Positions 4,198 to 46,651 of a DNA stretch of 64,000 bases are shown here, piece after piece. Within the stretch, counting starts at the first letter, position 1. Each line of letters begins with the position of its first letter. The DNA comes from a virus (Duplodnaviria; Caudoviricetes), in IMG/VR virus record IMGVR_UViG_3300043010_000145; one strand, written 5' to 3'. The position numbers and the translations under genes are program-made. The notes beneath the pieces were generated by a model that made no database searches, was not told the origin of the DNA, and saw only the letters and a list, made by a program, of their open reading frames with translations.

Positions 4198-4941
4198 CTA
4201 AATATTAAACCCCTCAGGAGCATCAGGCCAAGCAGCCTGATAGAAGGCCATCTTACCATTTTCATCAAAGAAGAGGCGAAAAGCACCATAAGGCATATCT
4301 GTTGTATAATCCAGAACCATTTCCTTTTTTCTTGCCTTAGCAAATTCACTCAGTTTAGTTACCAACTCAGCAAAGTCGATATCAGCATACGGAGCACCCC
4401 AAGCAAAGTTCAGTTTGTTGCCCGAACCTTCCATATAGCAATCTTCCAACATATCCCAATTAGCAATTTCTTGCACCGCATCGCTGTCTGCTGTAATGCA
4501 AGCCATACCATCTGTTTCATACTGTACCGCAGAGCTATGTTGTGCAATCACAGACTGGGTATCTACATAATCTTCCAACTTAGCTTCATTCGGCAGCACC
4601 ATAGTATCCCAATCCCAAACAACATCGCAGCCGTACTCATCCTCCTGAGCATAGATTCTTTTAGCGAATGGCAAGCCTAGTTTGTTTTTCTTACCATTGT
4701 CGTGATATTCCGCCACAACTTGCAAGTTCGGGTATAGGGAAGTCATATGAGTAATATGACCAATGATTTCTTGCACATCATTGACACAATACACAAGGTA
4801 TTCTGCCGTAGCATGCAGACAATCATTCTTCAATATTACAGAGGAACAGTATTGTTTGAATTCTCTTTTCATTGTTTTTACTGCATCAAGCACATCGCCT
4901 GTTCCATTTGAGAATAAGTGTATCGTTAAATTCAGTTGCAT
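4198..4941 (-). CDS. Hypothetical protein, probable paralog of 6542-7243
   Basis: AGAAAGGAG RBS before ATG at 4941; C-terminal GAFRLFFDENGKMAFYQAAWPD resembles GYYRFFFKNGKVDSYKAEFPD; terminator at about 4161-4190. Confidence 0.8.
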   Translation of the reverse strand: MQLNLTIHLFSNGTGDVLDAVKTMKREFKQYCSSVILKNDCLHATAEYLVYCVNDVQEIIGHITHMTSLYPNLQVVAEYHDNGKKNKLGLPFAKRIYAQEDEYGCDVVWDWDTMVLPNEAKLEDYVDTQSVIAQHSSAVQYETDGMACITADSDAVQEIANWDMLEDCYMEGSGNKLNFAWGAPYADIDFAELVTKLSEFAKARKKEMVLDYTTDMPYGAFRLFFDENGKMAFYQAAWPDAPEGFNI

Positions 4942-5087
4942 TGTTTTTCTCCTTTCTTGCATCTTCATCTATGTATTTGCAAGTTTTTATCTTTTTCTAT
5001 ATTTATATATTAGCACAGTATAGTTTTATTTGCAAATATTTATTCAATAATTAGTACGATATAGATAAGTACTCGCATAGCAAAGTT

Positions 5088-6541: not shown

Positions 6542-7243
6542 TTATTTCAAATCTTTCACAACTAAATCAGGGAATTCAGCCTTATAAGAATCCACTTTAC
6601 CATTCTTAAAGAAGAATCTGTAATATCCATCCCATGTATCTGATTCCAGTTCCAGCTTAATCATCTTTTCCGTATGCTTGCTTGCTTCCAACAGCAGTCT
6701 CAGCAGCGGTTCTAATTCCAACTCACAGCTTCCGTCATCATAGAAAGTCAGGCATTTGCCAGTCCAGTTGCCATTATATCCATCAGCCATATACTCAGGC
6801 AAGCCAACAGTGTTCAATGCTCTTTTTGGAGCATAGATGCAGCCGCTTACAACTTCAAAAACGGAAGGAATTTCCAACTCAATATGCAAAAGCAGGCATT
6901 TATCCAAGGCAACAAAATCTTTTTCCTTTGGTTCTTTAGGCAGATACAAATAGTAGGTTGCTCTTTTCTTGCCAAGTGCATAAATTACATAGCTGTGGTC
7001 TTCGTGCAAATCCGGGTTGAATGCTTGCAAACTGAACAGCACATCTGGGTATACCTTAGTAATTTCGTCCAGCAGCCAGTTTACCCAGTACTGTGTAGAC
7101 CAGTCCAAGCTTTTGTAATCAGACCAGCTATACGATGCAAAGTTTCTGATAAAATCCTCATTTGGTAAAAGTGATTGAAGTGTGCCTCCCACATTTTCCG
7201 TTTTTTGCGGGTCGGAAAGCAGTTCTAATACATACATTGCCAT
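6542..7243 (-). CDS. Hypothetical protein; its 5' end is matched by the mini-CRISPR spacer at 8028-8053
   Basis: 233-aa ORF, AAAGGAG RBS, terminator at 6511-6540. Confidence 0.85.
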   Translation of the reverse strand: MAMYVLELLSDPQKTENVGGTLQSLLPNEDFIRNFASYSWSDYKSLDWSTQYWVNWLLDEITKVYPDVLFSLQAFNPDLHEDHSYVIYALGKKRATYYLYLPKEPKEKDFVALDKCLLLHIELEIPSVFEVVSGCIYAPKRALNTVGLPEYMADGYNGNWTGKCLTFYDDGSCELELEPLLRLLLEASKHTEKMIKLELESDTWDGYYRFFFKNGKVDSYKAEFPDLVVKDLK

Positions 7244-7689
7244 TTTAATTAACTCCTTTTATTCATTCTCAGGGTATTCCACCCTCGTCTCTATCTGTAA
7301 TTATCTTACTATATTTTCTATCCTTTTTCAAGTGGTATGTAAGAATATTTATGAAATAGTATAGAATAATTTTATATTCACACACATCTTTGCTCAGGAA
7401 GTTTTTCTAAAAAAACCGCTTGCATTCACCTTCTATCTGTGATATATTATGGTTGCCCTCCGAAGAGGACAGTTATTTTTTTTGGACATGTTAAGACAAA
7501 AGCCACAGCGAATGCTGTGGCTTTTGTCTTTTAGTATTCATATTCTTCATCTTCGTCAGTTTCTACTGGCTCGTAAATCTTATATCTAGGTGTTGCATAT
7601 AGTTTTGCTTTTCATATGTAGTTCTTCTCCTTTTCAACTATTTCAATGTCGTACTAATTTTTTTTGTAAAAATTTAAATCATTTTTTTA

Positions 7690-7718
7690 TTGCATACTTA
7701 TTTTATTTGTGGTATACT
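7690..7718 (+). promoter_or_regulatory. Sigma-A promoter (extended -10) of RNA/mini-CRISPR cassette A
   Basis: TTGCAT-17 nt-TATACT preceded by TGTGG; same TTTGTGGTATACT at 41478-41490. Confidence 0.8.
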
Positions 7719-7728
7719 TTAAACAGAC

Positions 7729-7867
7729 AAGGAAAAGCATTAGATATTAGGGTGCTTGGGTGAAAAACCTAAGTGAGCCCCGCACGGGCGGGGAAATCCT
7801 ATATTATTTAAAGCTAGCAAAATGATATAGGTCAGTAAAAGTGCACGTTTACTGCAATGCTTTCCTT
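7729..7867 (+). ncRNA. Conserved multi-stem structured RNA, copy A
   Basis: Closing stem AAGGAAAAGCATT/AATGCTTTCCTT encloses four hairpins; homologous to 41501-41638 with compensatory changes. Confidence 0.75.
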
Positions 7868-7998: not shown

Positions 7999-8108
7999 AC
8001 TTGCCCCATAAGGGTGGGAATGTTTCTGTATGTATTAGAACTACTTGTTGACCGTTTGCCCCGCACGGGCGGGGATATGTTTCTTGTTTCAACAATCTAT
8101 ACAAGTTG
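7999..8108 (+). CRISPR. Orphan mini-array of two degenerate type I-E-like repeats (7999-8027, 8054-8084) with a 26-nt spacer and a trailing segment
   Basis: ACTTGCCCCATAAGGGTGGGAATGTTTCT and GTTTGCCCCGCACGGGCGGGGATATGTTTCT; CCCCGC-N4-GCGGGG hairpin as in I-E repeats; spacer matches 7210-7235 at 22/26 with an AAT flank. Confidence 0.8.
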
Positions 8109-8136
8109 GCACTCCGCAAATGCGGAGTGTTTTTTC
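8109..8136 (+). terminator. Intrinsic terminator closing cassette A
   Basis: GCACTCCGCA-aa-TGCGGAGTGT followed by a T run. Confidence 0.85.
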
Positions 8137-8203
8137 TATTGTCTAACAAGATAAAGCAGCGATACCTCGACACATAGGTCGGACTTCGCTGCTTTATCTT
8201 GTA

Positions 8204-10956: not shown

Positions 10957-13900
10957 TTGGATAAATTAAAACGAACAGTATTGTTCTTATTTCTTGGAAT
11001 TCTAGTATTAGCAGATACTAGTATGTCTATTTTCGCAGCGGGAAGTAGAGCGGCTGACGTAATTTGGGGCGATATACGAACATATTCACAAGAGGACATG
11101 CCTTATTTAAGTGATGCAATCACAGCGGGAAATATAAGTTATTCAACGGCTTATCAAAGAGGTCGTTCCTCCTCAGATACAGTTAAGACAAGTGTATATC
11201 AGAGCCAGAGGTTTAGTTCTGAGTATTCCAGTGGTTATTTTGCACCACAAGCAGGTCGTGAAATGGCGGGATTATCTAGTACGGCTGCAAGTACGGGTAA
11301 AGTTAGTTTAGGTTATTCATGGACATATAATGGTGAAGCATCCTATTGGTATAGCAACACGGTATGTTGGAATTTCACAAATACAGCTTATAACTCAAAT
11401 ATATTTGTTTATTATAAGCAAGGGGCTTTTTATAAGGGTGAGTATTATGATGTTAAGGTGTATTATTGGATGGAAAAGACATCTGGTCTTGATACTTCTT
11501 ATAAAGTGTATTCTAGCGGCTCTGTACAGGTTGTAGTAGATGCTAATGGGGATACTGCAAGACAAGCCTGTAGTCAGGTACATATGAAGATGTATTTCTT
11601 TAAGTCAGATGATACAAATGTAACATTCACGGATAGTACAGACAAAAGTAATAATGGTGAGGGTTATAAATTAGCAACTTATTCTACTGTGCCTGCTAAT
11701 TCTAAGGCTGCTGAGTTCAAAGGTGTTCTTTGTATAACAGATATGGACGCTGGCGAGGGTATGTACTTTAAGAGTGGTGTAGCGAGTGCTGCAAATGTTT
11801 ATTTGTCATCCAATACATTTATACGTAGGGTGCATTCTGACTCAGATATGCATGGTGCTTTTAATGAATATTATAATACAGGTTATACTAGTGAATTAGA
11901 CACAGGTAGTTTGTATGGTGTTGTTGCATCGGAGAATGCTAGCTCAAATCTGTCTACATTACTTAAAGAATATATTGCAGACGGGATGAATGCATCTACT
12001 AAGAAATTCCCATTAGGAACAAGTACAGTTGCTTCAACCTTACAATCTGGTTATGATACTGGTTTAATGTATGTGAGTGCATTTAGTAATGTGAGCCCGG
12101 ATTCTTCGAATAGCTTGTTAGGTAATGAGCCTGAATATATGTCTATGTGGGCAGAGTTTTTTTCATCATATTCTACACCAACGGAATTGGTTTATTTTAC
12201 GCCAAGTTCTCGTGGTGCAGACATTGGTTACCGAGGTGTGAATATTAACTATCAGAGTGTAGTTGTAGATAATGACTGTCTCCAAACTACTGCTAAAAAA
12301 TCTAAGGAGCTGGCAGCAGACCATGCAACTGCTTACGGTTCTTATCCTGTAACAAACGCTAGTTCTGCGTATGCTCAGGCACAGAGTGTTTATGGTTCCA
12401 ATTATACTGTTGAGGGTATTTATGCAGATTCAACATTAAAAACAAAGTATACTAGTGAGGATATTATAAAATTAACAGATGAAGATATTACATTATATGT
12501 AAAGATAATACCTACATATACTGTTACTGCGAAATCTTCTACTGGGGGCGTTACAGTTACACCGTCTAGTACTACATTGGCAGAGGGTGATTCTTGTAAA
12601 ATATCTTGGACTGCCCAAACTGGGTATGTAATTGCGGATATTACTGTTACAGCTCAACAAACAACAGCTGCCTATGGCCTAGTTAGTTTAGGTGGCGAAT
12701 CACATGGTGTAACTAGTACGTATACAATGCCATCCAGTAATACTGTTACAGGTGGTTATGTTACTATTACAGAAAAAGACCAAGCCGCCACAGGAAGTAC
12801 ACATAACACACATCGAAATTATGTTGTGAATGTAAGAGCAGTGCCTATAACCACGGATACTGTGGAAAGTTCTTATCAGTATGAAGTGCCTGTAACCTTT
12901 AATCTGACAAAAACAGATTCAGGAGATTCTACGGTATTACTGCAAGGAGCTACATATAGTTTAAGTCCATATAAGGCATTATCAGGTTCAACTTCTTATA
13001 GTGCTGTAACGTCTGCAAATAGTACGGCTACAACAAGCAGCACGGGAAAAATATCGAAAAAGTTTACAGTTGCCTCAGGTACATCTAGTACGTATTCTAC
13101 TTCTATAAAGTATATTCAGTCATCTGATATACTATCTTCATATAGTTCAACGGCTCAGAAGAATTTATTTGAAACAGCTTATAAGAGTACTTATACAGAA
13201 TCAACAGTACGAGCGAATGCTGAATCAACAAATGTAACAAGTTTCACAAATTGGCTTACGTCCAGTAAATTGGTTGGCAGCAAGATACAAGTAAAATACA
13301 CAGAAACAACTGCACCGACAGGTTATCAGTTATCTTCTACTACGAAAACTAGTTCTTCTGCTACGGTGGGTAGTTTTTCAGCAGGCACAGATGGTGTTTA
13401 TAGACCAACAACTGCATTGACAATAACAGCAACAGATACAAATACACCGTATAGCGGTACAAGACAAGAAGCGAATTATTCTTGTAATTATCTTGTTTAT
13501 GTTCCTATAACCGTAACCTTAACTAAGAAAGATGCAGGTACAAGTGATTTATTATCTGGTGCTAAATTCAGTATGTCTAGTGCCATTACGACCAATTCCT
13601 CCGGTGTAACATTAAGTTTAACAAACAATACTGCAACGGCTACAACCAATACAAATGGAACATTAACGTTTACCTTCCAAGTAAAAGGTTCTTTCACAAA
13701 GAATCTCACATATTATTATTACGATATGGATTCCTTGACAGGTTCAGCTAAAACTGCAGCACAAGCAGACGTGAATGCAAATTCCAATGTGTATGCAACT
13801 AAAGATGAAGCAACAAAAGCAGTTCAAGCAGCAGTTCTAGCAGAAGCAAATGCTACTGCAACCAAGCTGAGTAATGTAGTTATAACTGTTTCAGCTAAAG

Positions 13901-16900
13901 AAACTACTGCACCTACGGGGTATGATTTACCTAGTTCTGCTACAACTACTAAAACTGTAACATTAGGAACATTGCCTTACGATTCTTCCACTACGAGTTA
14001 TGGAACTACTGTAACTTCCTCTATGACTGTTACAGATACGGCTACGGCAGGCACAACAGCTACGGCATCTAAAACACAGACTTATACTTATGAAATTCCT
14101 ACAAGTTTAGTTATTACAAAAACAGATGCTACATCAAATTCTGCTTTATCTGGTGCTGTTTTTTCTGTAACTAGTACTGCAACAGATTCTACAAAGACGT
14201 TAACAAGTGAAACTACAAACACACAATCCGTTACAACAAATAGCAGTGGTAAAGCAACGTATTCTAATACATTGACAGGCTCTTTCACATTGACAACAAA
14301 GAATTATACGTATTATACGAATTATTCTTCGTTAAAGGGTTCTGCATTAAAAGATGCAAATAATGCAATTAATAACACAACAGTTTTCAAAACAAAATCA
14401 GAAGCTGAAGCTGCCGCTGATTCCGAATTAGCAACACTGCTTTCATCTAAGCAAACAGATTTAAAGAATATTGCGGTTACATTCTCTGCTAAGGAAACAA
14501 CTGCACCCAGTGGTTATGCTTTAGATACAACAACACATACATCTTCCAGCATTAAATCATCAGCATTTACAACTTCTGGTACGAAATTAACTGGTTCTAT
14601 ATCTACAACTATGTCCGTAACAGACACTCCATCAGGTGGTTCCTTGTCTGTTTTGACTGCACAAACAAAGCAGTATAACTACACAATTCCAGTGTCTATT
14701 AAATTAACTAAGAAGGATTCTACTACTAATGATGCTCTTGCTAATGCTACATTTACTGTAGTGAGCAAGTTTGGTTCTGAATCTTACGGTAATTCTGTCT
14801 CCAAAACGACAGATGAAAACGGTTTATTAACAGCAACTAGAAATATTACAGGTACAATTTCTGTTACAACATCCGCTTATTTGTATTATACAGATTATTC
14901 TAGCCTCGTAAGCTCTGCAAAAACGGAAGCAGATACAAAGATAGCCAATGGTGAAGCTTATAAAACGAAAGAAGATGCACAGGCTGCCGCTGATGCAGAA
15001 TTGCCTAATTTGGTTAAAGCAAAGTTAGCTTCCTCCGTTACGAGTCAAGCGATTCAGGCAAAAGCAACAGAAACAAAAGCACCATCAGGGTATACGTTAG
15101 ATACTACTGCACATGAAAGCAGTAAAGTGTATCCTAGCAATTATACTCTATCTGGAACAACTGCAACGTATTCAACTGTATCCGTGGATATTGGTACAGT
15201 TACAAATGATGCAGCAGGTGCAGCTACGGCACAGGTAGAAGCTACTACAAAAGAATATACCTACAGTATTCCTGTAAGTATTTCTTTAACGAAAACAGAC
15301 GCTGATTCTGGTAATTTGTTGAGTGGTGCAGTTTTTGATATTACAACGAAAGGTGCTTCCGATACAACGTTTACAAGAAAACAGTCTAAAACAACAGATT
15401 CGAATGGTGCAATAACCACAACGGACACTATTACAGGGAAATTCTCAGTTACATCTAAGGCGTATAAGTATTATGTAGATTATGATTCACTTGTAAGCAC
15501 TGTCAAGACAGAGGCAGATAAAAAAATTGCAAGTGGTGAGATGTATAAAGATGAAACGGCAGCCAGAGCTGCCATGCTTGCTTCTTTGCCTAGTCTAGCA
15601 GAAGAATATCTTAAAACAAATATTTCTGCGGTTGCATTACAGGCACAAGCAATAGAAACCACAGCACCAGCAGGGTATGAACTTGATGCTACTGCACATA
15701 CAAGTAAAGAGGTTAAGCCAACAACGTATTCTTTATCTGACACTGTATTTACATATGATACTGTGGCTTTACAAATAGGTACAATTACAAATGAGCCAAA
15801 AGGTGCAGCAACATCTACATTGTCATCTGTAACACAAAATTATTCGTATACAATTCCCCTGCAAATTACTTTGACAAAGAAGGATTCAGATTCTGACAAT
15901 CTGTTACAAGGTGCGGTATTTGATATCACCACAAAGTCTGCCACAGATTCTAGTTTTACAAGAAAACAATCAAAGACAACAGATAATAACGGTGCTATTT
16001 CTACTGCGGATACAGTCAATGGTACCTTTACAATAACGTCTAATACATTTAAGTATTATGATGATTATGATTCTCTTGTAGGTACAGTAAAAGACGAAGC
16101 AGATAAGAAAATAGCGTCTAATCAAGTTTATAAAACAAAAGCAGATGCACAAGCAGCACAAGCTGCTTCATTACCCGTTCTTGCAAAGGAGTATGTTGAA
16201 GCAAATATTTCTGCAAAAGGAATTCAAGCACAGGCAATAGAAACAACAGCACCTGACGGATATACATTAGATACAACTGTACATACAAGTGAGGAAGTTA
16301 AACCTGATAAGTATACATTATCTGGCACAACTTTCACATACAATACTGTAACATTACCTATTGGTACAGTTATAAACACACCAAAAGGAGCTTCTGTTTC
16401 TACCGTAGCTGCCATTGAAAAGCAGTATTCGTATGTAATTCCTTTACAAGTTACTTTGACCAAGAAAGATTCCAGTACATCTTCCTTGTTAAAAGGTGCT
16501 ACATTTGACATTACAACTAAGGGATTGAATGATGTTGACTTTACAAGGAAACAAACAAAAACAACGGATACTAATGGAAGTATTATTGTAACAGACAGTA
16601 TAAATGGTACATTTAAGGTTAAATCCAAGGAATTTAAATACTATGATGATTATAATGCACTTGTAAGTACAGTTAAAGAAAATGCAGATAAGAAAATTGC
16701 TGCGGGAGAGATGTATAAAACAAAAGCAGATGCAGAGGCTGCCCAAGCCGCTTCGATTCCAGTATTAGCTACGGAATATCTCGCAAATAATATTTCCACG
16801 GAATCTATTCAGGCTCAGGCAATAGAAACAGCAGCACCTGACGGGTATACATTAGACACAACTGCACACCTTAGTAAAGAAGTTACACCAAGCAAATATT

Positions 16901-19860
16901 CTTTAACAGATTCTGTATTTACGTATGAAACTGTAAATTTAGATATTGGAGATATTACAAACACACCTAAAGGTGCAACAATTTCTACAATAGAACCAGT
17001 TACAACCACGTATACTTACACTATACCTATGTCTGTAACCTTAACAAAGAAAGATTCTACTGCGGATATTATGTTGGCGGATGCAAATTATACTTTGTCT
17101 ACAAAAACTTTGAAAGATTCAGACTTTGTTCGTAGTCAGAATGCTACCACAGATAAGAATGGCTCTTTAAATGTATTGGATTCTGTAAGTGGTACGTTTG
17201 ATGTAAAAACTTCTTCTTATAAGTATTATGATGACTATGACGCACTGGTAAGCACTGTAAAAGAAGAAGCAGATAAGAAAATTGCAGCCAACGAAGTATA
17301 TAAAACAAAAGCAGATGCACAGGCTGCACAAGCAGCTTCTATTCCAGTATTAGCTAAGAATTATGTAGAAAATAATATTTCAACGGAAGTCATACAGGCA
17401 AAAGCAGTGGAAACTAAGGCACCTAGTGGGTATGTATTGGACACAACAGAACATGTTAGTAAAGAAGTAAAACCAACAAAATATACTTTGACAGATACTA
17501 CTTTTATGTATGATACTGTGAATTTAAGCATAGGAACTTTAACGAATACACCTAAGTCTGCTGATGTAGAAACATTGAATGAAGTTACAACAAAGTATAC
17601 TTATACTATACCAATGTCTGTAACGTTAACAAAGAAAGATGCTACCGCTGATATTCTGCTGGCAGATGCTAGTTACACCTTGGCTACAAAGACTTTGCTA
17701 GATGCAGATTTTTCAAGAGCACAAGTGTCTGCTACAAATGAAGATGGAGTTTTAACTGTGAACGATAGTGTCAGTGGGGAATTTAGTGTAACAACATCTT
17801 CTTATAGCTATTATACAGACTATGATTCTTTGGTTAGTACAGTGAAGGAAGACGCAGATAGTAAAATTGCGGCTAAGGAAGTATATAAGACAAAAGAAGA
17901 TGCACAGGTTGCATTAAATGCGTCTATACCAGTTCTTGCTAAACTTTATCTTGAAAAGAATATTTCATCACAAGATATTCAAGCTAGTGCTACGGAAATT
18001 AAAGCACCTGATGGGTATGTAGTAGATTCAGAAGTGCATATTAGTGATGCAGTTAAACCAACAAATTCAACTTTGACAAATACAGAATTCACGTATGATA
18101 AAGTTTCCTTGAATATTGGTACTTTAACAAATACGCCTAAGCCCGCAGTAGTTGATGAGTTAGATGCTCAAACAAAAGAATATTCCTATAATTTACCAGT
18201 AGATATACAGTTAGTGAATCAAGATGTAGATACTGAGGAGCCCTTGATTGGTTCAGATTTTACTATTACATCTGCCACTTCTCAGAAAGATAGTTCTTTT
18301 GCGGAAACTTATAATGAAACAACAAATGAAGTCGGCAAAATTAACTTATCTCGGGAAATCACGAATAAATTCACTGTAACGTCTAGTTCTTACAAATATT
18401 ACGATGATTACGATGCACTTGTAAGTACTGTAAAAGCAGAAGCAGATGAAAAGATTGCAAATAATGAAATTTATCAGTCTAAGGAAACTGCACAAGCAGC
18501 TCTTGAAGAAGAACAAGAAAAGCTTGCCAATCAGTATATGACGAATAATATTTCAACTACAACACTACAATCTACTGCAAAACAAACGAAAGCTGCTACA
18601 CCTTATGTTCTTAATACAGAGACCTATGAGTTGAATGATGTTCCAATGACGAACTATGCTTTTGACGAAGATACAAATACCTTCAATTATGAAACAGTAA
18701 TTATGGATTATAAAGTTGTAAATAATTTGAAGTATCTTGTGGAATTAGTGAATATAGAGAATGAAGTATTAGAAGGTGCAGAATTCCAGATTCAAGATGT
18801 AAATGGTACTGTAATTGACGAATGGGTATCCTCCGAAGAGCCACATGCTATACCGGAACTCGTAGATAATCAAACATATACAATTGTAGAGGTGAAAGCA
18901 CCACAAGGCTATGTTTTAGCAAATTCAACTACATTTGAAACGATTGATGAACATAATACAAAGATAACCATTGTAAACGGTAAGTATAGTGTATCTCTTG
19001 TAGATTCCCAAGAAGAAACTATCGAAGGTGCAAAATTCCAGCTTTTAGATGAAGAAGGTAATATCTTAGAAGAATGGGTATCTACCGAAGATGTTTATAT
19101 TCCTGATTCTTTAACTGTTGGTAAAACGTATACTATTGTTGAAACATATACGCCAACTGGATTTAATCAAATGCAGCCTTATACATTCACAGTAGCAAAT
19201 GAAAATGAAGCTATTGTTTTAAAGAATAATTGCACAAGTATCTATAAGAAAACTTCCACGGGCAAAGCCGTGGTAGGTGCTGCATTACAGATACAAGACG
19301 AGGAAGGTAATGTAATTGATAGCTGGCTAAGTGGTCAACAAGTTGTTTCACTTGAGGATTCCGTAGTTAAAGAAGCAAATGAAAAGGGTATTGCATATAT
19401 TGTAAAACCTGATATTTCAGAGAATTCAACTGAAGAAACTATACCGTCTGATGAAGATTTAGCTATTATTATTATGCAGAAGGTTAAGCCAACAACAACC
19501 GAAAATACATATGTTTTGATAACAGAATATTCTGACGGTAATTGGACTTATCAAGAAGTTGATAGTAAAGGTATTGAATTAGGACATAGAGCAAATCTTA
19601 TCTCTGATACCAATTATGAACTTGTGGAAACTAAAGCACCAGATGGTTTTGAACTTGCTTCTAATATGAGTTTTATTGCAAAAGCCGATACAGATTATTC
19701 TGTAACAATGATTGATGAATATAAAGTAGAAGCTGCAATTCATAAGCTAGCTACGGGTATTCATTCTAACATTACATATATTGCAGTTGGTTTCGCAGCC
19801 ATTGTAATTCTTGTCGTTATTTTTGTTTTGCGAAAGAAAAAACATACTGCCACAAACTAG
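10957..19860 (+). CDS. Giant cell-wall-anchored adhesin with SpaA/prealbumin-like repeats (2967 aa)
   Basis: Signal peptide; many roughly 195-aa repeats with LTKKD..LxGA.F and ETxAPxGYxL motifs; C-terminal LATG, hydrophobic segment and RKKK tail. Confidence 0.9.
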   Translation: MDKLKRTVLFLFLGILVLADTSMSIFAAGSRAADVIWGDIRTYSQEDMPYLSDAITAGNISYSTAYQRGRSSSDTVKTSVYQSQRFSSEYSSGYFAPQAGREMAGLSSTAASTGKVSLGYSWTYNGEASYWYSNTVCWNFTNTAYNSNIFVYYKQGAFYKGEYYDVKVYYWMEKTSGLDTSYKVYSSGSVQVVVDANGDTARQACSQVHMKMYFFKSDDTNVTFTDSTDKSNNGEGYKLATYSTVPANSKAAEFKGVLCITDMDAGEGMYFKSGVASAANVYLSSNTFIRRVHSDSDMHGAFNEYYNTGYTSELDTGSLYGVVASENASSNLSTLLKEYIADGMNASTKKFPLGTSTVASTLQSGYDTGLMYVSAFSNVSPDSSNSLLGNEPEYMSMWAEFFSSYSTPTELVYFTPSSRGADIGYRGVNINYQSVVVDNDCLQTTAKKSKELAADHATAYGSYPVTNASSAYAQAQSVYGSNYTVEGIYADSTLKTKYTSEDIIKLTDEDITLYVKIIPTYTVTAKSSTGGVTVTPSSTTLAEGDSCKISWTAQTGYVIADITVTAQQTTAAYGLVSLGGESHGVTSTYTMPSSNTVTGGYVTITEKDQAATGSTHNTHRNYVVNVRAVPITTDTVESSYQYEVPVTFNLTKTDSGDSTVLLQGATYSLSPYKALSGSTSYSAVTSANSTATTSSTGKISKKFTVASGTSSTYSTSIKYIQSSDILSSYSSTAQKNLFETAYKSTYTESTVRANAESTNVTSFTNWLTSSKLVGSKIQVKYTETTAPTGYQLSSTTKTSSSATVGSFSAGTDGVYRPTTALTITATDTNTPYSGTRQEANYSCNYLVYVPITVTLTKKDAGTSDLLSGAKFSMSSAITTNSSGVTLSLTNNTATATTNTNGTLTFTFQVKGSFTKNLTYYYYDMDSLTGSAKTAAQADVNANSNVYATKDEATKAVQAAVLAEANATATKLSNVVITVSAKETTAPTGYDLPSSATTTKTVTLGTLPYDSSTTSYGTTVTSSMTVTDTATAGTTATASKTQTYTYEIPTSLVITKTDATSNSALSGAVFSVTSTATDSTKTLTSETTNTQSVTTNSSGKATYSNTLTGSFTLTTKNYTYYTNYSSLKGSALKDANNAINNTTVFKTKSEAEAAADSELATLLSSKQTDLKNIAVTFSAKETTAPSGYALDTTTHTSSSIKSSAFTTSGTKLTGSISTTMSVTDTPSGGSLSVLTAQTKQYNYTIPVSIKLTKKDSTTNDALANATFTVVSKFGSESYGNSVSKTTDENGLLTATRNITGTISVTTSAYLYYTDYSSLVSSAKTEADTKIANGEAYKTKEDAQAAADAELPNLVKAKLASSVTSQAIQAKATETKAPSGYTLDTTAHESSKVYPSNYTLSGTTATYSTVSVDIGTVTNDAAGAATAQVEATTKEYTYSIPVSISLTKTDADSGNLLSGAVFDITTKGASDTTFTRKQSKTTDSNGAITTTDTITGKFSVTSKAYKYYVDYDSLVSTVKTEADKKIASGEMYKDETAARAAMLASLPSLAEEYLKTNISAVALQAQAIETTAPAGYELDATAHTSKEVKPTTYSLSDTVFTYDTVALQIGTITNEPKGAATSTLSSVTQNYSYTIPLQITLTKKDSDSDNLLQGAVFDITTKSATDSSFTRKQSKTTDNNGAISTADTVNGTFTITSNTFKYYDDYDSLVGTVKDEADKKIASNQVYKTKADAQAAQAASLPVLAKEYVEANISAKGIQAQAIETTAPDGYTLDTTVHTSEEVKPDKYTLSGTTFTYNTVTLPIGTVINTPKGASVSTVAAIEKQYSYVIPLQVTLTKKDSSTSSLLKGATFDITTKGLNDVDFTRKQTKTTDTNGSIIVTDSINGTFKVKSKEFKYYDDYNALVSTVKENADKKIAAGEMYKTKADAEAAQAASIPVLATEYLANNISTESIQAQAIETAAPDGYTLDTTAHLSKEVTPSKYSLTDSVFTYETVNLDIGDITNTPKGATISTIEPVTTTYTYTIPMSVTLTKKDSTADIMLADANYTLSTKTLKDSDFVRSQNATTDKNGSLNVLDSVSGTFDVKTSSYKYYDDYDALVSTVKEEADKKIAANEVYKTKADAQAAQAASIPVLAKNYVENNISTEVIQAKAVETKAPSGYVLDTTEHVSKEVKPTKYTLTDTTFMYDTVNLSIGTLTNTPKSADVETLNEVTTKYTYTIPMSVTLTKKDATADILLADASYTLATKTLLDADFSRAQVSATNEDGVLTVNDSVSGEFSVTTSSYSYYTDYDSLVSTVKEDADSKIAAKEVYKTKEDAQVALNASIPVLAKLYLEKNISSQDIQASATEIKAPDGYVVDSEVHISDAVKPTNSTLTNTEFTYDKVSLNIGTLTNTPKPAVVDELDAQTKEYSYNLPVDIQLVNQDVDTEEPLIGSDFTITSATSQKDSSFAETYNETTNEVGKINLSREITNKFTVTSSSYKYYDDYDALVSTVKAEADEKIANNEIYQSKETAQAALEEEQEKLANQYMTNNISTTTLQSTAKQTKAATPYVLNTETYELNDVPMTNYAFDEDTNTFNYETVIMDYKVVNNLKYLVELVNIENEVLEGAEFQIQDVNGTVIDEWVSSEEPHAIPELVDNQTYTIVEVKAPQGYVLANSTTFETIDEHNTKITIVNGKYSVSLVDSQEETIEGAKFQLLDEEGNILEEWVSTEDVYIPDSLTVGKTYTIVETYTPTGFNQMQPYTFTVANENEAIVLKNNCTSIYKKTSTGKAVVGAALQIQDEEGNVIDSWLSGQQVVSLEDSVVKEANEKGIAYIVKPDISENSTEETIPSDEDLAIIIMQKVKPTTTENTYVLITEYSDGNWTYQEVDSKGIELGHRANLISDTNYELVETKAPDGFELASNMSFIAKADTDYSVTMIDEYKVEAAIHKLATGIHSNITYIAVGFAAIVILVVIFVLRKKKHTATN

Positions 19861-20053
19861 CAACTATCTCTAAATTAAAAGGAAAGGCAACCTCTCCTCC
19901 CACTCCGTGAGAGGAAGACCGCCTTTCCTTTTCTTGTGTTGACATTTCTTTTTTGCAGCAAAATAGGTTCTTTCGCATTTTATTTCTAATATTTTTACTC
20001 TGCTCTTATCAAACAAACAAAACCAATATAAATATCGAGAGGAAGGTTTTTAT

Positions 20054-20599
20054 ATGTACAAGAGATTGTTTATATTAACATTAGCCGTTATATTAGCAGG
20101 CTGCGGTTCAAAAACCCAAACATTTTATGAGGAAGGCGAAGAGAACAAAGCTATTTCTGGTGATTATACAGAGCAAGCAACAACAGTTGTTTCCGAGGGC
20201 TTACCTGGTACAAATGCAGCGAATACTATGAAATTGTTAAGTACTGTATTAACAGGTATTACTTTGTATGATGCAGAAGCGGTTCCAGACACTAACAGGG
20301 TATCTTATCACATGTATTATGGGGAAAAGACAGACGGTACACATGTTATCGTTCAGGCAGATAAAGATACAGGTGAAATTGCTTATCTAAATGTCTATCT
20401 TGATGCAGGTGATATTTCCAAGCAAGATACTGTTGTTAAGATTATTTCCAGTATAGGGTATGAGGACGTATCCTATGACGATTACTATGCTTTCTTTAGT
20501 AAGGAATACAACGATACACAAGTGTTTGGTTCTAGTATTGCAAGTTATTCGTATAATATGACAGCTTTTGAATATACAATCAAATCTTGTGGTATTTAA
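20054..20599 (+). CDS. Lipoprotein of unknown function
   Basis: Lipobox LAGC after a hydrophobic signal. Confidence 0.85.
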   Translation: MYKRLFILTLAVILAGCGSKTQTFYEEGEENKAISGDYTEQATTVVSEGLPGTNAANTMKLLSTVLTGITLYDAEAVPDTNRVSYHMYYGEKTDGTHVIVQADKDTGEIAYLNVYLDAGDISKQDTVVKIISSIGYEDVSYDDYYAFFSKEYNDTQVFGSSIASYSYNMTAFEYTIKSCGI

Positions 20600-20613
20600 A
20601 ATAAAGAAAGGAA

Positions 20614-23600
20614 TTGATTAATTTGGGGTGTTTAAAGCGAACATTTACGGTTTTTACAGCCTTATTTATAGTATTGTGCAGTTCTATCACTATGTTGTTT
20701 GCTGAAGAGCAAGAGTCATTAAAAAAGCAATATCATGACGCAAACACTTTTAATAAAGATTTAGAGAATTTTGAGTGGGGTGATGTTAGAACATATCCTA
20801 CGGAAACCATTGGTTGGTTATCTAATGCTATAAGTAAGGGTTATATTAAATATACAACAGATGCTGAACGTGGCGGTTCTTCTATTTATGCAAAGAACGG
20901 AAATACATCAAATTCAAAGTGTCATAGTTTCCGACAAGAGTACTCTAACGGGTATTTTTCCCCGCAGGGTGGCCACACAAAAGCTACAATTAGTTCTAAG
21001 TTGCGAGTAGCAACTTATGATGATTACAATAATTCACCAAGCTACAAAGCATTTCTCAATAATTTCGATGTTATTATAACGAATCATAATGAAAGTCGAA
21101 CAAATACATCCGTGGAGAGTTATTGGGCCATAGATAACGATATGTGGACTTTCTTTAATACTAGCTATAATGACAACATATATGTATATTATAAAGAGGG
21201 TGCTTTCTATAATGGTGAATATTATGACGTAAAGGCATATTACTGGACTGAAAGTACAGTAGAGGATTCCACAGATGTACCTATTCGTTATTCTGTGTTA
21301 TCTAGTGGTTCTATCTCAAATGGTTGGGCTGGCTCTGCTAGGAACGCACAAGCATTTACACAGGTGCATTGTAAGTTTTATTTCTTTAAATCATCTGATT
21401 ATCCTAATGCAAATGCAGATAATGCCCCTGCTAATTCTAAGGCAGTTGATTTTAAAGGTGTGTTTGGTATAACAGATTTAGATGCTGGGGAAGGTGTAAA
21501 ATTTATAAGCGGTGTGCAGTCTGACGAGAATGTGTATTTATATCAAAATACATTTGTTAAGAAGGCCACAGAGAGTACAATTCATGGTTTATTTAATGAG
21601 TTTTTCAATACGCAAAATTCTAGTACAGAAGATGGTGTTATTACTGCAAATGATGAAGAGTTAAACTTATTATATATTCAGGCTATGAAAGGCGGGGCTT
21701 CGAGTATTAACACTACAAATTGCCCATTTATTGCTACAACAGGTTTCAATACTACAACACATAAGTATGATTTAGCTAAAAGCACAGTCCCAACCAGTAT
21801 TTCTGGTACAGACGGTTCTTATGCTTTAACATATGTTGGTTCTTTTGATAATGTGAGTAGTAATTATTTATTAGGTAATGATGTGGAATCTATGATGCTC
21901 TGGGCGGAATTTTCCTCCACAGCTTCCGAGCCATTTGAAATAACTTATTTTAGTCCAAGTACTCGTTGCACAGATATTGCTTATAAAGGTCTAACTATTA
22001 ATTATAAGGCGAAAGTAGAAGATAATAATTGCTTGTCTAGCAGTAAGAAAACTACAACCGATTTAGCCACAGATTATGCAGATTATTATGGTACATATAC
22101 TTTACGTACCTTAGACGACACAAGTACTGATGGTTATACTGCTGAAAAATCTTTACTGCAAAAAGTAAAAGCAGAATATGGTGATGGTTACACTGTACAG
22201 GGTATTTATACAGATTCTACATTTAAAACACTAGCACCCGCAAGTGTAAGTTTAGGTGAAACTGACTTAACCTACTATGTCCTTGTTACACCAACCTACA
22301 ATGTAACTGCCGTAACAGATGCTGGTGCAACTCTGCTAACAGACGCTTCGGTTACAGGTCTAGCGGAAACATCTTCTACCAACACAAAGCTTGTGGAGGG
22401 CAGTACTGCAACCACTGTTAAATGGGAAGCAAAGAAAGGGTATATCATATCTGACGTAAAGATAGAAGCAATTCCCGCCACAGATACCGATTATTATGGT
22501 AATAGCAGTAAGATAAAAGATGTATCTAATACAGCGTATGCAAACAAGAATTATACATTGACAAGCGGTTCTGTTCAGATATGCGAGAAAGATGAAGATA
22601 ATATTCATAGAAATTACAAGGTAACTATATCTACGGTGGCCATAGGTTCTAAAGAAGATACTACATCTTTTGCATTAGAAGTTCCCGTCACATTTGAATT
22701 AACAAAAACGGATAGTGCCAATTCCAGTTTATTGCTAGAAGGAGCTACTTATGATGTTACATTCATGAAGGATTCAAAAGCAGTAACCACAGTGCAGGCT
22801 ACAACAGATGCAACAGGAAAATTAAGTGCAACTGCCGTTGTAGATTCTTACACGTATTCCAAATCTTTTGATACCACTAAATCATATATTGCGGGAACAT
22901 TGCCAAAGACGTATTCCAGTACAACACAGCAAGCATTGGTACAGAATGCAATTTCCAGCGGTAATTATTATGCAAATGAAAGTGCGGCATTAGCAGCATC
23001 TAAGGCTTTACGAGAAGAAGATTGGTTGAATGCAATAAAGAATAGAACTTCCAATATTACGGTGAAATATAAAGAAACGTCAGCACCATCCGGGTATGAA
23101 TTGTCTAGTAAAGAAAAGACTACATCAAGCATTACAGTGAATTCATATGCTGCCGATTCCAGTGGTGTGTATAAGCCTACAACAACAGTAAAACTTACTG
23201 CAACTGATACAAACACACCATATAGTGGTACACGAAAGACAGTTTCTAAGAGTGCTACTTATAATGTTTCTGTGCCTGTAAGTTTCCAAGTTACAAAGAA
23301 AGATGGCAGCACGAATGATTTATTATCTGGTGCAGATTTCTCAATCACAGGTACTATCTCTTCAAATACAACAGGTGTGAATTTGTCTTTAGCAAATTCT
23401 ACATCGACAGGTACAACAGATAGTAATGGTGTAGTAACTTATTCAACAAACTTGACGGGTTCGTTTACGAAAAATGCTACATGCTATTATTATGATTTAT
23501 CTTCCTTAGCAGGCTCTGCTAAAACAGAAGCACAGAAAGAGATAGATTCTAATAGTAATGTTTTTGCAACACAAGCGGAAGCAGAAGCGGCTGCATTAAA

Positions 23601-26283
23601 AGAAGTGGAAAGTGCTGCCCAAACAACGGCTAACGCATTAAAAGATGTCGAATTAACTTTTAAAGCAACAGAAACAAAAGCACCAAGCGGGTATAATCTT
23701 CCAGCAAATGCTGCCACAAGTAAAACTGCTACATTGGGTGAGTTGACATATGACAGTACTAAGAAACTATTTAGTACGAATGTTTCAGCAAAAACAGATG
23801 TTACAAATACAGCCACAGATGGTGTAACAGCTAAAACGTCTGCTAGCAGTACATATACTTACGAGATTCCAGTTACATTTACTTTAACAAAGACGGATGA
23901 AGCAAAGAATACACCATTAGCCAATGCAACATATTCGGTTGCTATGAACGTAGTTGACCCAACAGGCACTGTAACTTTACCAAATACATCTTCACAATCT
24001 GTAACAACGAATGATAAAGGTGAAGCAACAGTTACAAACACTTTGACAGGTACATTCCAGTTGGAAACTGGTCAATATAGCTATTATACAGACTACAGTT
24101 CTTTAAAAGGTGAAGCTTTAACAAAAGCAACAGCTGCTATTGATAATAAAACAGTATTTAAAACAAAAGAAGACGCAGATGCAAAAGCGAAACAAGATTT
24201 AGCTGAGTTATTGAAAGCAAAGCAAGAATCTTTAAAGACAATTTCTGTAAGTTATACGGCAACAGAAACAAAAGCACCAGACGGGTATACTTTGAGTTCC
24301 ACAGAGCTTACTACAAATGCAGTAAGTCCTACGGATGTTCAAGTGAACGGTACAAAATTATCTTCCACTATTTCCTTAAACTTAGAAGCAACAGATAAAC
24401 CAATTGAGCCAAGTATTGATGTGATTCAAGCTGTTGCAAATGAGTTTACATATAAAATTCCTCTTGAAACAACTTTGAAGAAAGTAAATGCAGAAACAAA
24501 TGACGGTTTGCAAGGTGCTGAGTTTACAATTCAAAGTAAATTAGGTGAAGATAACTTTACAGATACAGTTACACAAACAACTGACGATAATGGCTTATTA
24601 ACAGATACTCGTGAAATTACAGACACGTTTAAAGTCAAAACTTCTGCTTATTTGTATTATACAAATTATGATTCACTCGTAAGTACTGCCAAGATTGATG
24701 CTGATGCCAAGATAGCTTCCGGCGAAGTTTATAAGACAAAAGCAGACGCTGAGGCAGCAAGAGATGCAGAAATAACAAAGCTTTTAGAAGAATATACAGA
24801 AAAAAATATCACATCGCAATCTGTACAAGTACAAGCAACTGAAATTAAAGCTCCAACAGGTTATGTATTAGATATGACTGCACATGTAAGTGATGAGGTG
24901 AAACCGTCTAATTATACACTTAACGGTTCAACATTAACGTATGAAACAGTTAAATTTGATTTAGGTACAATCAAGAATGTGCAATATCTTGTTGAAAAAG
25001 TAGATAAGTCTAATACTTCCCTAGAAAATGCAGAATTGCAAGTTGTAGATTCCAGTGATACTGTAATTGATTCTTGGGTATCAGCAGCAGAGCCACATGC
25101 TGTTGATGGTTTAAAAGCAAATCAGACATATACTTTAGTGGAAACAAAAGCTCCGAAAGGGTATGCTATTGCAAAGCCTATTGAATTTACAACAGATGCT
25201 GAGGCTACCACAAAAGTAACTATGACAGATGTGAAGATTTCTATTTCTTTATTAGATGAGCATGATATGCCAGTGGAAGGTGCACAGTTACAATTGACTG
25301 ATGAAGATGGGAATGTAATTGCCACTTGGACTGTAACAGACGAACCTTATATTCCAGAAGGTTTAGAAGTTGGTAAAAAATATACTATTACCGAAATCTA
25401 TACACCGGATGGTTTTAATCAAATGCAGCCATATACTTTCACAGTTGGCGAAGAAGATATGAATATTGTTGTAAGAAATGGAGCAACTTTACTTTATAAG
25501 AAATCGCCTGATGAGAAAGAAGTAAAAGGTGCAGAATTGCAGCTTGAATCTAAAGACGGTACAGTAATAGATTCTTGGGTATCTGGGCAAGAGATTGTGC
25601 AATTAACGGATGAGTTGAAGCAAGAAGCAGATACAACAGGTGTTGCATATCTGATTGATAACAAGGAAGATACGCTATCCGTTTCTCTGAATAAAGAGCC
25701 TGATGAATCAAATAATTCTACCACCTTAGCAGATAGCTCTACTACTGTATCTGATATCGTATCTGAAACCACATCGGATACTGCCTTGGCAAGCGAAGAT
25801 GAAGATATTGTTTCTTACAATGAACCAAATAAACAGGCAAGTGATTCTGATGCAAATACTGAGAAAACGATTGTCATGCAGAAAATTAAACTAGCTTACA
25901 CAAAGAATTGCTATACTTTAATTACACAGTATAGTGATGATACTTGGACATATCAGGAAGTTAATGCGTATGGTAATGAAGCTGGGCATAGGGCAAGCCT
26001 TGTTGAAGGTGAAGAGTATTCTTTTGTAGAATCAAAAGCACCAAAAGGATACGAAGAAGCTGCTACGATTACATTTAAAGCAGAAGCTGAACAATCTTAT
26101 ACTTTAACTATGTATGACGAGTATCTCGTGGAAGGTGCAAGGAATAAAGCCGACACTGGTATTATGGGTAATAGTACTGTTATTGCAGTGGCTGCGATTG
26201 CTGCTGTGATATTGTTAGTCCTTATTCTTCTTGTTTTGAAAAAGAAAAAGAGTAAGCATACTTCCGATAATAGTTTGAATTGA
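20614..26283 (+). CDS. Cell-wall-anchored SpaA-repeat adhesin, paralog 2 (1889 aa)
   Basis: Same N-domain (WGDVRTY, GAFYNGEYYDVK, DLDAGEG) and repeats; ADTG, TM and KKKK tail. Confidence 0.9.
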   Translation: MINLGCLKRTFTVFTALFIVLCSSITMLFAEEQESLKKQYHDANTFNKDLENFEWGDVRTYPTETIGWLSNAISKGYIKYTTDAERGGSSIYAKNGNTSNSKCHSFRQEYSNGYFSPQGGHTKATISSKLRVATYDDYNNSPSYKAFLNNFDVIITNHNESRTNTSVESYWAIDNDMWTFFNTSYNDNIYVYYKEGAFYNGEYYDVKAYYWTESTVEDSTDVPIRYSVLSSGSISNGWAGSARNAQAFTQVHCKFYFFKSSDYPNANADNAPANSKAVDFKGVFGITDLDAGEGVKFISGVQSDENVYLYQNTFVKKATESTIHGLFNEFFNTQNSSTEDGVITANDEELNLLYIQAMKGGASSINTTNCPFIATTGFNTTTHKYDLAKSTVPTSISGTDGSYALTYVGSFDNVSSNYLLGNDVESMMLWAEFSSTASEPFEITYFSPSTRCTDIAYKGLTINYKAKVEDNNCLSSSKKTTTDLATDYADYYGTYTLRTLDDTSTDGYTAEKSLLQKVKAEYGDGYTVQGIYTDSTFKTLAPASVSLGETDLTYYVLVTPTYNVTAVTDAGATLLTDASVTGLAETSSTNTKLVEGSTATTVKWEAKKGYIISDVKIEAIPATDTDYYGNSSKIKDVSNTAYANKNYTLTSGSVQICEKDEDNIHRNYKVTISTVAIGSKEDTTSFALEVPVTFELTKTDSANSSLLLEGATYDVTFMKDSKAVTTVQATTDATGKLSATAVVDSYTYSKSFDTTKSYIAGTLPKTYSSTTQQALVQNAISSGNYYANESAALAASKALREEDWLNAIKNRTSNITVKYKETSAPSGYELSSKEKTTSSITVNSYAADSSGVYKPTTTVKLTATDTNTPYSGTRKTVSKSATYNVSVPVSFQVTKKDGSTNDLLSGADFSITGTISSNTTGVNLSLANSTSTGTTDSNGVVTYSTNLTGSFTKNATCYYYDLSSLAGSAKTEAQKEIDSNSNVFATQAEAEAAALKEVESAAQTTANALKDVELTFKATETKAPSGYNLPANAATSKTATLGELTYDSTKKLFSTNVSAKTDVTNTATDGVTAKTSASSTYTYEIPVTFTLTKTDEAKNTPLANATYSVAMNVVDPTGTVTLPNTSSQSVTTNDKGEATVTNTLTGTFQLETGQYSYYTDYSSLKGEALTKATAAIDNKTVFKTKEDADAKAKQDLAELLKAKQESLKTISVSYTATETKAPDGYTLSSTELTTNAVSPTDVQVNGTKLSSTISLNLEATDKPIEPSIDVIQAVANEFTYKIPLETTLKKVNAETNDGLQGAEFTIQSKLGEDNFTDTVTQTTDDNGLLTDTREITDTFKVKTSAYLYYTNYDSLVSTAKIDADAKIASGEVYKTKADAEAARDAEITKLLEEYTEKNITSQSVQVQATEIKAPTGYVLDMTAHVSDEVKPSNYTLNGSTLTYETVKFDLGTIKNVQYLVEKVDKSNTSLENAELQVVDSSDTVIDSWVSAAEPHAVDGLKANQTYTLVETKAPKGYAIAKPIEFTTDAEATTKVTMTDVKISISLLDEHDMPVEGAQLQLTDEDGNVIATWTVTDEPYIPEGLEVGKKYTITEIYTPDGFNQMQPYTFTVGEEDMNIVVRNGATLLYKKSPDEKEVKGAELQLESKDGTVIDSWVSGQEIVQLTDELKQEADTTGVAYLIDNKEDTLSVSLNKEPDESNNSTTLADSSTTVSDIVSETTSDTALASEDEDIVSYNEPNKQASDSDANTEKTIVMQKIKLAYTKNCYTLITQYSDDTWTYQEVNAYGNEAGHRASLVEGEEYSFVESKAPKGYEEAATITFKAEAEQSYTLTMYDEYLVEGARNKADTGIMGNSTVIAVAAIAAVILLVLILLVLKKKKSKHTSDNSLN

Positions 26284-41073: not shown

Positions 41074-41274
41074 ATGAAATATAATGTGCAATATCTATTT
41101 AACGGTGAGATAGACCTTGAAGTATCCGCAAATAGCCCAGAAGAAGCCGTGCAGAAGTTCTGGAACAAATTCCCAAAAGCAACTATGGATAATCTAAGCA
41201 TTACAGAAGCAAATGAATTGAATATATGCGATAAAGACTGGAACTTCATTTGCTCCGCTGATTTTGAAGAATAA
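41074..41274 (+). CDS. Small acidic protein, family member 2; its 3' end is matched by the guide at 41757-41807
   Basis: MKYNVQYLFNGEIDLEVSANSPEEAVQK...ICDKDWNFICSADFEE. Confidence 0.8.
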   Translation: MKYNVQYLFNGEIDLEVSANSPEEAVQKFWNKFPKATMDNLSITEANELNICDKDWNFICSADFEE

Positions 41275-41462: not shown

Positions 41463-41490
41463 TTGCAGTTCTTCTAATTTGTGGTATACT
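41463..41490 (+). promoter_or_regulatory. Sigma-A promoter of cassette B
   Basis: TTGCAG-16-TATACT with TGTGG extension, homologous to 7690-7718. Confidence 0.75.
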
Positions 41491-41500
41491 GTATTCATAT

Positions 41501-41638
41501 AAGGAATAGCATTATATTATGGTGCTTGATTAGAAACATTTAAGTAAGCAATTTAGAACGGTGGAAAAGCATATATTATTTAAAGCTAGCTAAATGATAT
41601 ATGATGGTAAATGTGCACGTTTACTGTGATACTTCCTT
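41501..41638 (+). ncRNA. Conserved multi-stem structured RNA, copy B
   Basis: AAGGAA...TTCCTT closing stem; hairpins CATATATTATTTA-AAGCTAGC-TAAATGATATATG and GGTAAA-TGTGCACG-TTTACT. Confidence 0.75.
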
Positions 41639-41727
41639 GTAAAGCTACCAGTCAGAAAACTCGAAGGTGTGTTACAAAGTTGCGAATTTGTAACAAGGTG
41701 TACCGAGTTAAATATGGAAACGAAAGT

Positions 41728-41807
41728 GTTTGCCCCGCACGGGCGGGGATGTTTCTGTTTGCGATAAAGACTGGAATTTTATTTTATCCGCTGATTTCAA
41801 TGATTAA
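41728..41807 (+). CRISPR. Solitary type I-E-like repeat (41728-41756) followed by a guide-like segment
   Basis: GTTTGCCCCGCACGGGCGGGGATGTTTCT (29 nt); the next 51 nt match 41224-41274 at 41/51; leader-like segment at 41671-41727. Confidence 0.8.
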
Positions 41808-41826
41808 ATTGCTGCTTGGTATGGTT

Positions 41827-41856
41827 AAAAAGCTCATTTAATGAGCTTTTTCTTTT
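41827..41856 (+). terminator. Intrinsic terminator closing cassette B
   Basis: AAAAAGCTCATT-t-AATGAGCTTTTT. Confidence 0.8.
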
Positions 41857-41943
41857 TGCCTGTCTGTTTGCTTGCAAATAGCTATATCTTTTAGAAAGTG
41901 AGGTTCTGCACCAAAGTAATAATATAGGTGCAATATTCATTGT

Positions 41944-44397: not shown

Positions 44398-44460
44398 TCA
44401 AAATTTCTATATCTAATATCAGTAATTAAACAAATAGAAATATACGGAAAGGTGAAAATT

Positions 44461-46551: not shown

Positions 46552-46651
46552 TTTGTTTTACCAAGTCCTTGCCTAAGGACTTTTTATTTTGTCTGCTCTT
46601 TTCTCTTTTACTTGAAATCTGTATGTATTATAGAAAAGGAGTTTTTACAAA

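Follow-up and report, generated by a model that had tools for sequence, protein, structure and literature searches.

What does a single CRISPR-type guide do when it matches the start of the gene next door and the surrounding DNA carries no cas genes of the same type? This question is raised by a small repeat-spacer-repeat unit, cassette A, found in the window (the whole 64-kb stretch of DNA that was analyzed). The initial annotation had read its 26-nt spacer as a CreA/CreR-like guide that may keep the divergent neighboring gene silent as long as Cascade is present. Our preferred reading, to which we would give a probability of about 0.45, is different: cassette A appears to be an element-borne mini-CRISPR of type I-E, with a guide taken from another version of the neighboring gene, and its complex would probably bind the resident gene without cutting it.

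The similarity between the spacer and its neighbor was recovered exactly as first described. Compared with the reverse complement of positions 7210-7235, the spacer (8028-8053) is identical at 22 of 26 positions, with identity unbroken at positions 1 to 15 and mismatches at positions 16, 20, 21, and 22, and the minus-strand bases directly 5' of the matched site (7238-7236) are AAT. The match was also said to involve the first codons of the divergent gene, and so it does: it is in frame, covers codons 3 to 11 of the 233-aa ORF 6542-7243, and begins at the final base of codon 3. The differences follow the codon structure, one being synonymous (third codon position) and the other three swapping one whole codon, from Ser to Val. 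When 500 shuffled spacers were compared with both strands of the 64-kb window, the best ungapped match was 20/26 and 22 was never reached. The binomial expectation of a match of at least 22/26 is 1.7e-4 for the whole window and 5e-6 within 1 kb on either side. The match between spacer and neighbor is real and non-random. A chance resemblance of an arbitrary spacer to a gene start, in favor of which there is the AT-rich composition and nothing else, has next to no probability in view of these figures and of the same relation in two further cassettes (see below).

Cassette A consists, in this order on the plus strand, of a promoter, a structured RNA of ~140 nt, a leader-like segment, a degenerate repeat, the 26-nt spacer, a second repeat, a tail, and a terminator (Table 1). 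Its promoter -10 block is invariant in two paralogous cassettes, B and C, and the fold z-score of the whole unit is -5.4. For the three copies of the structured RNA (7729-7867 and 41501-41640 in the window and L021:6700-6840 before it), 37 consensus pairs were obtained, 2 of them with compensatory double changes; the palindromic loop hexamers are invariant, and the domain is located before the repeats in all three cassettes. No Rfam family matched it, and this conserved structured RNA ahead of the repeats is undescribed. The position of the lone repeat hairpin (R1) that forms one of its arms in cassette A is degenerate in cassettes B and C.

Although degenerate, the first repeat (7999-8027) retains its stem thanks to a compensatory pair and a wobble, and all 8 nt of its 5' handle are unchanged. 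The probability that seven random changes would all miss the 8-nt handle is 0.075. The insertion in the second repeat lies beyond the expected Cas6e cut, so that the first crRNA would keep its 3' end and the next unit would be spoiled. The parts for one mature crRNA, i.e., the complete handle, the spacer, and the 3' hairpin, are all intact in cassette A. The state of the first repeat suggests that the capacity for spacer acquisition has been lost. No match was found anywhere for the tail after the second repeat. Between the 233-aa gene and cassette A (7420-7530), there is also a plus-strand promoter-like sequence and, ~70 nt beyond it, a strong bidirectional terminator with a 17-bp hairpin (7493-7530); this stretch may correspond to a small RNA or to the remnant of a gene end.

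Table 1. Features of the three cassettes, their matched sites, and the surrounding CRISPR-related genes. Positions are those of the window unless preceded by L008 or L021.
Feature	Position	Strand	Remarks
Divergent neighboring gene	6542..7243	-	233 aa, acidic (pI 4.8) orphan; good ribosome-binding site and terminator
Protospacer-like site	7235-7210; 5' AAT flank 7238-7236	-	Codons 3-11 of ORF 6542-7243
Predicted promoter of the 233-aa gene	7303..7331	-	Consensus scan only
Promoter, cassette A	7690..7718	+	Weak -35 (7690-7695), 17-nt spacing, extended -10 (7710-7718); read directly
Structured RNA domain, ~140 nt	7729..7867	+	Multi-stem junction; 5' end of the transcript
Lone I-E-type repeat hairpin R1	7773..7801	+	One arm of the structured RNA; exact 16-nt stem-loop, other flanks
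Leader-like segment	7868..7998	+	Includes a conserved 9-bp hairpin; also conserved in cassette B, lacking in cassette C
Degenerate first repeat	7999..8027	+	7/29 positions changed; folds, -7.8 kcal/mol
26-nt spacer	8028..8053	+	22/26 to minus strand 7235-7210
Second repeat	8054..8084	+	Hairpin perfect and separated from the handle by a 2-nt insertion
Terminal tail (23 nt) and intrinsic terminator	8085..8137	+	Stem 8108-8131 plus T run
Cassette B matched site	41221..41274	+	5' AAT flank; positions 1 and 3 mismatched; homology extends to the stop codon
Sister cassette B	41482..41860	+	Promoter, structured RNA, and leader as in cassette A; a single repeat, which is perfect (41728-41756)
Two tandem stand-alone Cas3 HD-domain proteins	46652-47545, 48009-49124	+	Best model is I-E Cas3
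Cassette C	L021:6684-7010		32-nt spacer between two repeats; ~31 kb before the window
I-C array / I-C module	L008:14046-15054 / 15142-20951		~1-9 kb beyond the window end

The repeats have the geometry of type I-E, i.e., 5 nt, a 6-bp GC stem, a 4-nt loop, and then 8 nt. Repeats of this 29-nt type with 8 nt after the stem were found at 41728-41756, at 8054-8084, and at both repeat positions of cassette C. Besides, the 22-nt repeat core is identical to the repeat of an array with a 61-bp period in a Dehalococcoidia genome, which directly follows Cas1 and a Cas2 of the CT1978 (E. coli subtype) family. Judged by shape and core sequence, the cassette repeat is type I-E in nature. As for the spacers, that of cassette C has 32 nt, in line with the ~32 nt expected for I-E, and that of cassette A, with 26 nt, is shorter. 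No I-E cas genes (cse1, cse2, cas7, cas5, cas6e, or cas3) were found in the window and ~45 kb of its flanks (contig of up to 577 kb). The type I-E frame of the initial annotation thus holds for the repeat, but the adjacent CRISPR-Cas system is type I-C and uses a different repeat. Its module, ~1 kb past the window end, comprises a cas3 helicase, cas5d, csd1, and cas7 and is accompanied by a 14-unit array with a 33-nt repeat unrelated to that of the mini-array. The possibility that the mini-array serves this I-C system was rejected because of the unrelated repeats. For one spacer of the I-C array (L008:14438-14471), 27 of 34 positions agree with a site (L008:13423-13456) in the gene that adjoins the array on its left side, with PAM-proximal mismatches; to judge from this match, the array shows the same neighbor-matching habit as the I-E cassettes.

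The adjacent I-C Cas3 (L008:15142-17331, 729 aa) has helicase and C-terminal domains and no HD match. The two stand-alone HD proteins of the window may be split nuclease partners or Cas3 decoys. The guide also has a 10-nt seed match at 46621-46630, upstream of the first of the two HD-only genes; we discarded this site as a possible second target, given that its flank equals the repeat end instead of being PAM-like and its frequency is at the chance level. The guide matched no other promoter within the ~110 kb of contig sequence examined.

The unit is not unique on this element. There are at least three paralogous cassettes, all with the order promoter, ~140-nt structured RNA, leader, I-E repeat, guide, and terminator. 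In cassette B, the 51 nt that come after the repeat and ahead of the terminator share homology with the tail of the upstream gene. The guide of cassette B matches that tail at 27/33 positions (41/51 over the whole tail to the stop codon), and that of cassette C matches a site near the 3' end of its upstream gene at 25/32, with positions 3, 4, and 6 mismatched. In the ~110 kb of sequence, each first guide matches only its own neighbor, and always at the gene end nearest to the cassette (3/3). All three guides are in frame and have the appearance of diverged coding sequence, with synonymous and replacement differences, those of the sister cassettes being ~80% identical to their neighbors. As in-frame, diverged copies of the neighbor in every case, the guides seem to derive from another allele or paralogue of it. 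The PAM and seed are retained in the resident copy of cassette A only. The homologous sites of the carrier have seed mismatches in B and C, whereas that of A has PAM-distal mismatches only. Since the sister cassettes show the relation between guide and neighbor despite their seed mismatches, the relation itself would stem from this allelic or paralogous origin and not from regulation.

In E. coli, type I-E acquisition is known to derive the final repeat base from the PAM. The last repeat base is the same as the base preceding the matched site in cassettes A, B, and C (T, T, and C, respectively), which fits I-E acquisition. From this base and the flank of cassette B, we infer AAT as the working PAM; at the site matched by cassette A, this AAT is followed by 15 consecutive PAM-proximal matches. 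The origin of the guide of cassette B was probably different. Its repeat is fused directly to the 51-nt in-frame tail (41757-41807) of a paralogue of the upstream gene, and since this homology, which runs to the stop codon, is longer than any spacer, the guide would be a gene remnant joined to a repeat and not a product of Cas1-Cas2. Cassettes B and C are flanked by 85 to 91% identical copies of the promoter regions of their neighbors (41845-41898 and L021:6594-6678). Their location between duplicated promoter pieces suggests that, in tandem arrays of paralogues, each of the two cassettes took the place of the greater part of one member. The guides may thus come from in-genome paralogues rather than from rival elements.

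The gene matched by cassette A gave few clues to its function. The guide site is inside the coding region, ~60 to 85 nt downstream of the predicted transcription start, and the predicted -10 is ~60 nt upstream of it, so that the target is neither within nor next to the predicted promoter. A weak paralogue of the 233-aa protein is encoded at 4198-4968. The protein had no match in Pfam, PHROG, PADLOC, or NCBIfam, and no homologues were found in collections of 5.8 billion and 1.8 billion proteins or among plasmids or phages. Protein searches with the products targeted by the guides of cassettes B and C returned only themselves, and all three targets are orphans. The AlphaFold model of the 233-aa protein has a pLDDT of 45, and its Atlas neighbors have TM scores of ≤0.46, with no usable fold match.

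Relatives of the locus were equally scarce. Searches by blastn for the cassette, repeat, or spacer found none in plasmids and phages, and five patterns run against IMG/VR gave chance matches only. Two patterns run against metagenome contigs gave none, or chance single matches in high-GC DNA, and two run against species genomes gave unrelated single matches plus one true I-E array, that of the Dehalococcoidia genome. No array or cas operon with the cassette repeat appeared in any collection searched. The initial annotation had suggested looking in relatives for a target identical to the spacer at all 26 positions; the phage, plasmid, and viral collections contained none, and when the protein collections were added there was neither such a 26/26 target nor an allele of any of the three target genes. 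All the metagenome contigs carrying the locus were 100% identical and provided no natural variation for covariation.

The rest of the gene content gives an idea of the kind of element involved. In a region of long palindrome-rich noncoding modules, ORF 1546-2415 codes for a Ser/Thr protein kinase with a strong match to PD-T4-6 defense kinases (E value of 5e-49). Orphan methyltransferases are found at 35540-37177 and 44395-45621 and in L018/L019, namely, an Eco57I-like N6 enzyme, C5 enzymes (one with intein domains), and two of the D12 class beside an AlwI-type nuclease. The element also encodes TerD/TelA, a PARP-like protein, and a DUF87 (VirB4-like, weak) ATPase. This cargo is consistent with a large conjugative element carrying defense and counter-defense genes. 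In addition, there are four giant surface proteins of up to 2,967 aa (10957-19860, 20614-26283, 50932-53628, and 54352-59820), with SpaA-type prealbumin repeats or with DUF285 and leucine-rich repeats.

With these data, we propose that a large mobile element of the conjugative type carries cassette A as a mini-CRISPR of the I-E style, with a single guide, no cas genes, and a functional appearance. The RNA of the cassette would be processed by Cas6e of the host and would then enter an I-E Cascade that is likewise supplied by the host and not encoded by the element. A rival element with a perfectly matching allele would be cut, and the carrier's own allele would be spared through its mismatches, so that the cassette family would act as a weapon in conflicts between related elements, with the Cascade-Cas3 of the host being borrowed for the purpose. 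This reading of the cassettes as element-borne guides against rival alleles follows from the proximity of guides and targets and from the escape of the carrier in the mini-arrays of Sulfolobales viruses (see below). The initial annotation had linked the short spacer to binding without cleavage, but a length of 26 nt does not in itself prevent cleavage. In E. coli, interference was retained with spacers of >20 nt, Cascade then containing fewer Cas7 subunits (PMC5159557), and a 26-nt guide is therefore compatible with interference. Cassette A would be special in that both the AAT flank and 15 seed-proximal matches are still present in the resident allele. The four distal mismatches, three of them within one 5-nt segment, should halt completion of the R-loop and recruitment of Cas3, and for this reason the complex would be expected to bind the start of 6542-7243 and not to cut it. 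Binding of Cascade without cleavage at the resident site is thus plausible from this analysis. Repression of the gene is live but unproven, an add-on and not the primary explanation. One finding does not sit well with the weapon: by retaining PAM and seed, the resident allele of cassette A shows poor self-avoidance, and this is a better fit to a regulator.

A dedicated regulator of the CreA/CreR kind is, in our opinion, a rather doubtful but serious alternative. Host I-E Cascade would be guided to the start of 6542-7243 and the gene would stay silent until Cascade is absent or inhibited, its product being a toxin, an anti-defense protein, or the output of a sensor. As regards architecture, the initial proposal fared well. 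The first repeat provides the 5' handle and the second the 3' hairpin around a short spacer, as in the I-E CreR of Salmonella, and the match has 15 consecutive PAM-proximal positions beside a PAM-like flank. Guides of 24 and 21 nt are on record for Cracr RNAs of type I-E, and there is a precedent for a protein toxin under CreA control in CrePA. The target is at the promoter-proximal end of the divergent gene, and among the three cassettes this is the only one in which PAM and seed against the neighbor are kept. The position of the site and the cas context speak against it. The targets of CreTA, CrePA, and CreR are in or beside a promoter, whereas this one is within a coding region and away from the predicted promoter, and the module is neither inside nor beside a cognate I-E cas locus in the window and ~45 kb of its flanks. 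The crRNA would pair with the template strand; E. coli Cascade represses transcribed regions only when on the nontemplate strand or near the polymerase footprint, as we read the strand naming in that report (PMC4288209), and on the same reading there would be no repression at this distance, beyond the footprint. The codon-structured mismatches, the sister cassettes, which cannot regulate their neighbors, and the 233-aa product, which has neither a family match nor an assigned function, also speak against a regulator.

Two other explanations seem to us very unlikely, and to the same degree. One is an RNA anti-CRISPR or decoy, like Racr or Cracr, in which the repeats (R1, the two repeats of the array, and the solitary repeat of cassette B) would soak up Cas6e or Cascade subunits of the host, or re-aim Cascade at a host cas promoter, with the neighbor match as a historical by-product. 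Solitary and mini-array repeats on a mobile element without cognate cas genes, transcribed from a strong promoter behind a stable structured 5' domain, would suit such a role, as would the methylase and kinase genes nearby, and Racrs and Cracr arrays are known from phages and plasmids, among them I-E examples in which the repeats are degenerate and the guides short (PMC10651486). But it leaves unexplained why three of three guides match their own neighbor, and no other promoter in the ~110 kb examined is matched by the guide. The other is a relic in decay: the unit would be what is left of an old mini-array or of a recombination event, neither processed nor used any more, and its similarity to the neighbor would reflect shared ancestry. 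In cassette A, the changes (a degenerate first repeat, a shortened spacer, and the 2-nt insertion in the second repeat) spare exactly what one mature crRNA needs, i.e., the handle, a stem pair maintained by compensation, and a perfect 3' hairpin, and this is difficult to reconcile with decay, as is the conservation of promoter, structured RNA, and terminator, with compensatory changes, in three copies. What remains in favor of a relic is the degeneration itself, the fusion of a repeat to a gene remnant in cassette B, the location of the cassettes among duplicated promoter pieces and paralogues, and the failure to find cognate cas genes.

The crRNA-like regulators described so far are located inside cas loci (CreA and CreR) or are phage or plasmid copies of host regulators (Cracr), and viral mini-arrays are known as weapons against sister viruses. 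The locus described here joins both themes. Three cas-less I-E cassettes on a bacterial mobile element, each apparently aimed at a version of the adjacent gene, make the proximity rule explicit (3/3), and the geometry of cassette A is that of a Cascade repressor acting on a gene of the element. If confirmed, this would mean that a mobile element reads the state of the CRISPR effector of its host or exploits that effector for allele exclusion. A bolder version, which we consider quite unlikely, is that the cassettes are self-promoting units of a guide plus an immune allele. The host Cascade-Cas3 would cut the sensitive neighbor allele of a rival, and recombinational repair would then copy the cassette together with the resistant allele, i.e., a CRISPR-guided allelic drive. 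Cassette A would additionally be a sensor of Cascade, with the 233-aa protein switched on when Cascade is missing or blocked.

Among known systems, the mini-arrays of the Sulfolobales viruses SPV1 and SPV2 are similar in several respects. Their spacers target regions of the sister virus close to the position of the array, a proximity that the authors left unexplained (PMC6858448). Like them, the cassettes qualify as mini-arrays, with one or two spacers, their own leader and promoter, and no cas genes of the same type (in the window and ~45 kb of its flanks), and the carrier's own copy of the target differs from the guide (PMC6858448). SPV1 and SPV2 use the Cas proteins of the host, and the use of a host Cascade is what we infer for the cassettes. 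The viral arrays are archaeal, of types I-A and I-D, and have perfect targets in the sister virus and disabling mutations in the carrier, whereas no perfect target was found here and the copy next to cassette A keeps PAM and seed. A structured RNA before the array is found in the cassettes and not in SPV1 or SPV2.

Other resemblances are to Cascade-guided regulators and to their counterparts on mobile elements. The I-E CreR of Salmonella enterica represses casA ~8.6-fold without cleavage (bioRxiv 10.1101/2023.03.10.532045). Like cassette A, it is a degenerate mini-CRISPR of two repeats, the first keeping the 8-nt 5' handle and the second the 3' hairpin, and it shares 15 consecutive nt with a PAM-flanked target, the same match count as in cassette A. 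Unlike CreR, which is inside its own cas locus and acts on the casA promoter region, cassette A is on a mobile element with no cognate cas locus in the window and ~45 kb of its flanks, and its site is in the coding region of an orphan gene of that element. With CreTA and CrePA, cassette A shares a crRNA-like RNA that adjoins a partly matched divergent gene, which codes for a protein in the case of CreP (bioRxiv 10.1101/2024.01.05.574328). Only in CreTA and CrePA do the targets abut the -35 or the -10, are the modules placed between cas genes, and has toxicity been shown. Cracr (bioRxiv 10.1101/2024.10.29.618823) and Racr (PMC10651486) are, like the cassettes, repeat-like RNAs on mobile elements, and they make use of Cas proteins of the host, as the cassettes would. 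The I-E Cracr RNAs have guides of 21 to 24 nt (24 and 21 nt on prophages), degenerate repeats, and an altered number of Cas7 subunits (bioRxiv 10.1101/2024.10.29.618823). Cracr guides are copies of the CreR or CreA of the host and target its cas or creT promoters, whereas the sole visible partial target of cassette A is the neighbor gene of the element itself.
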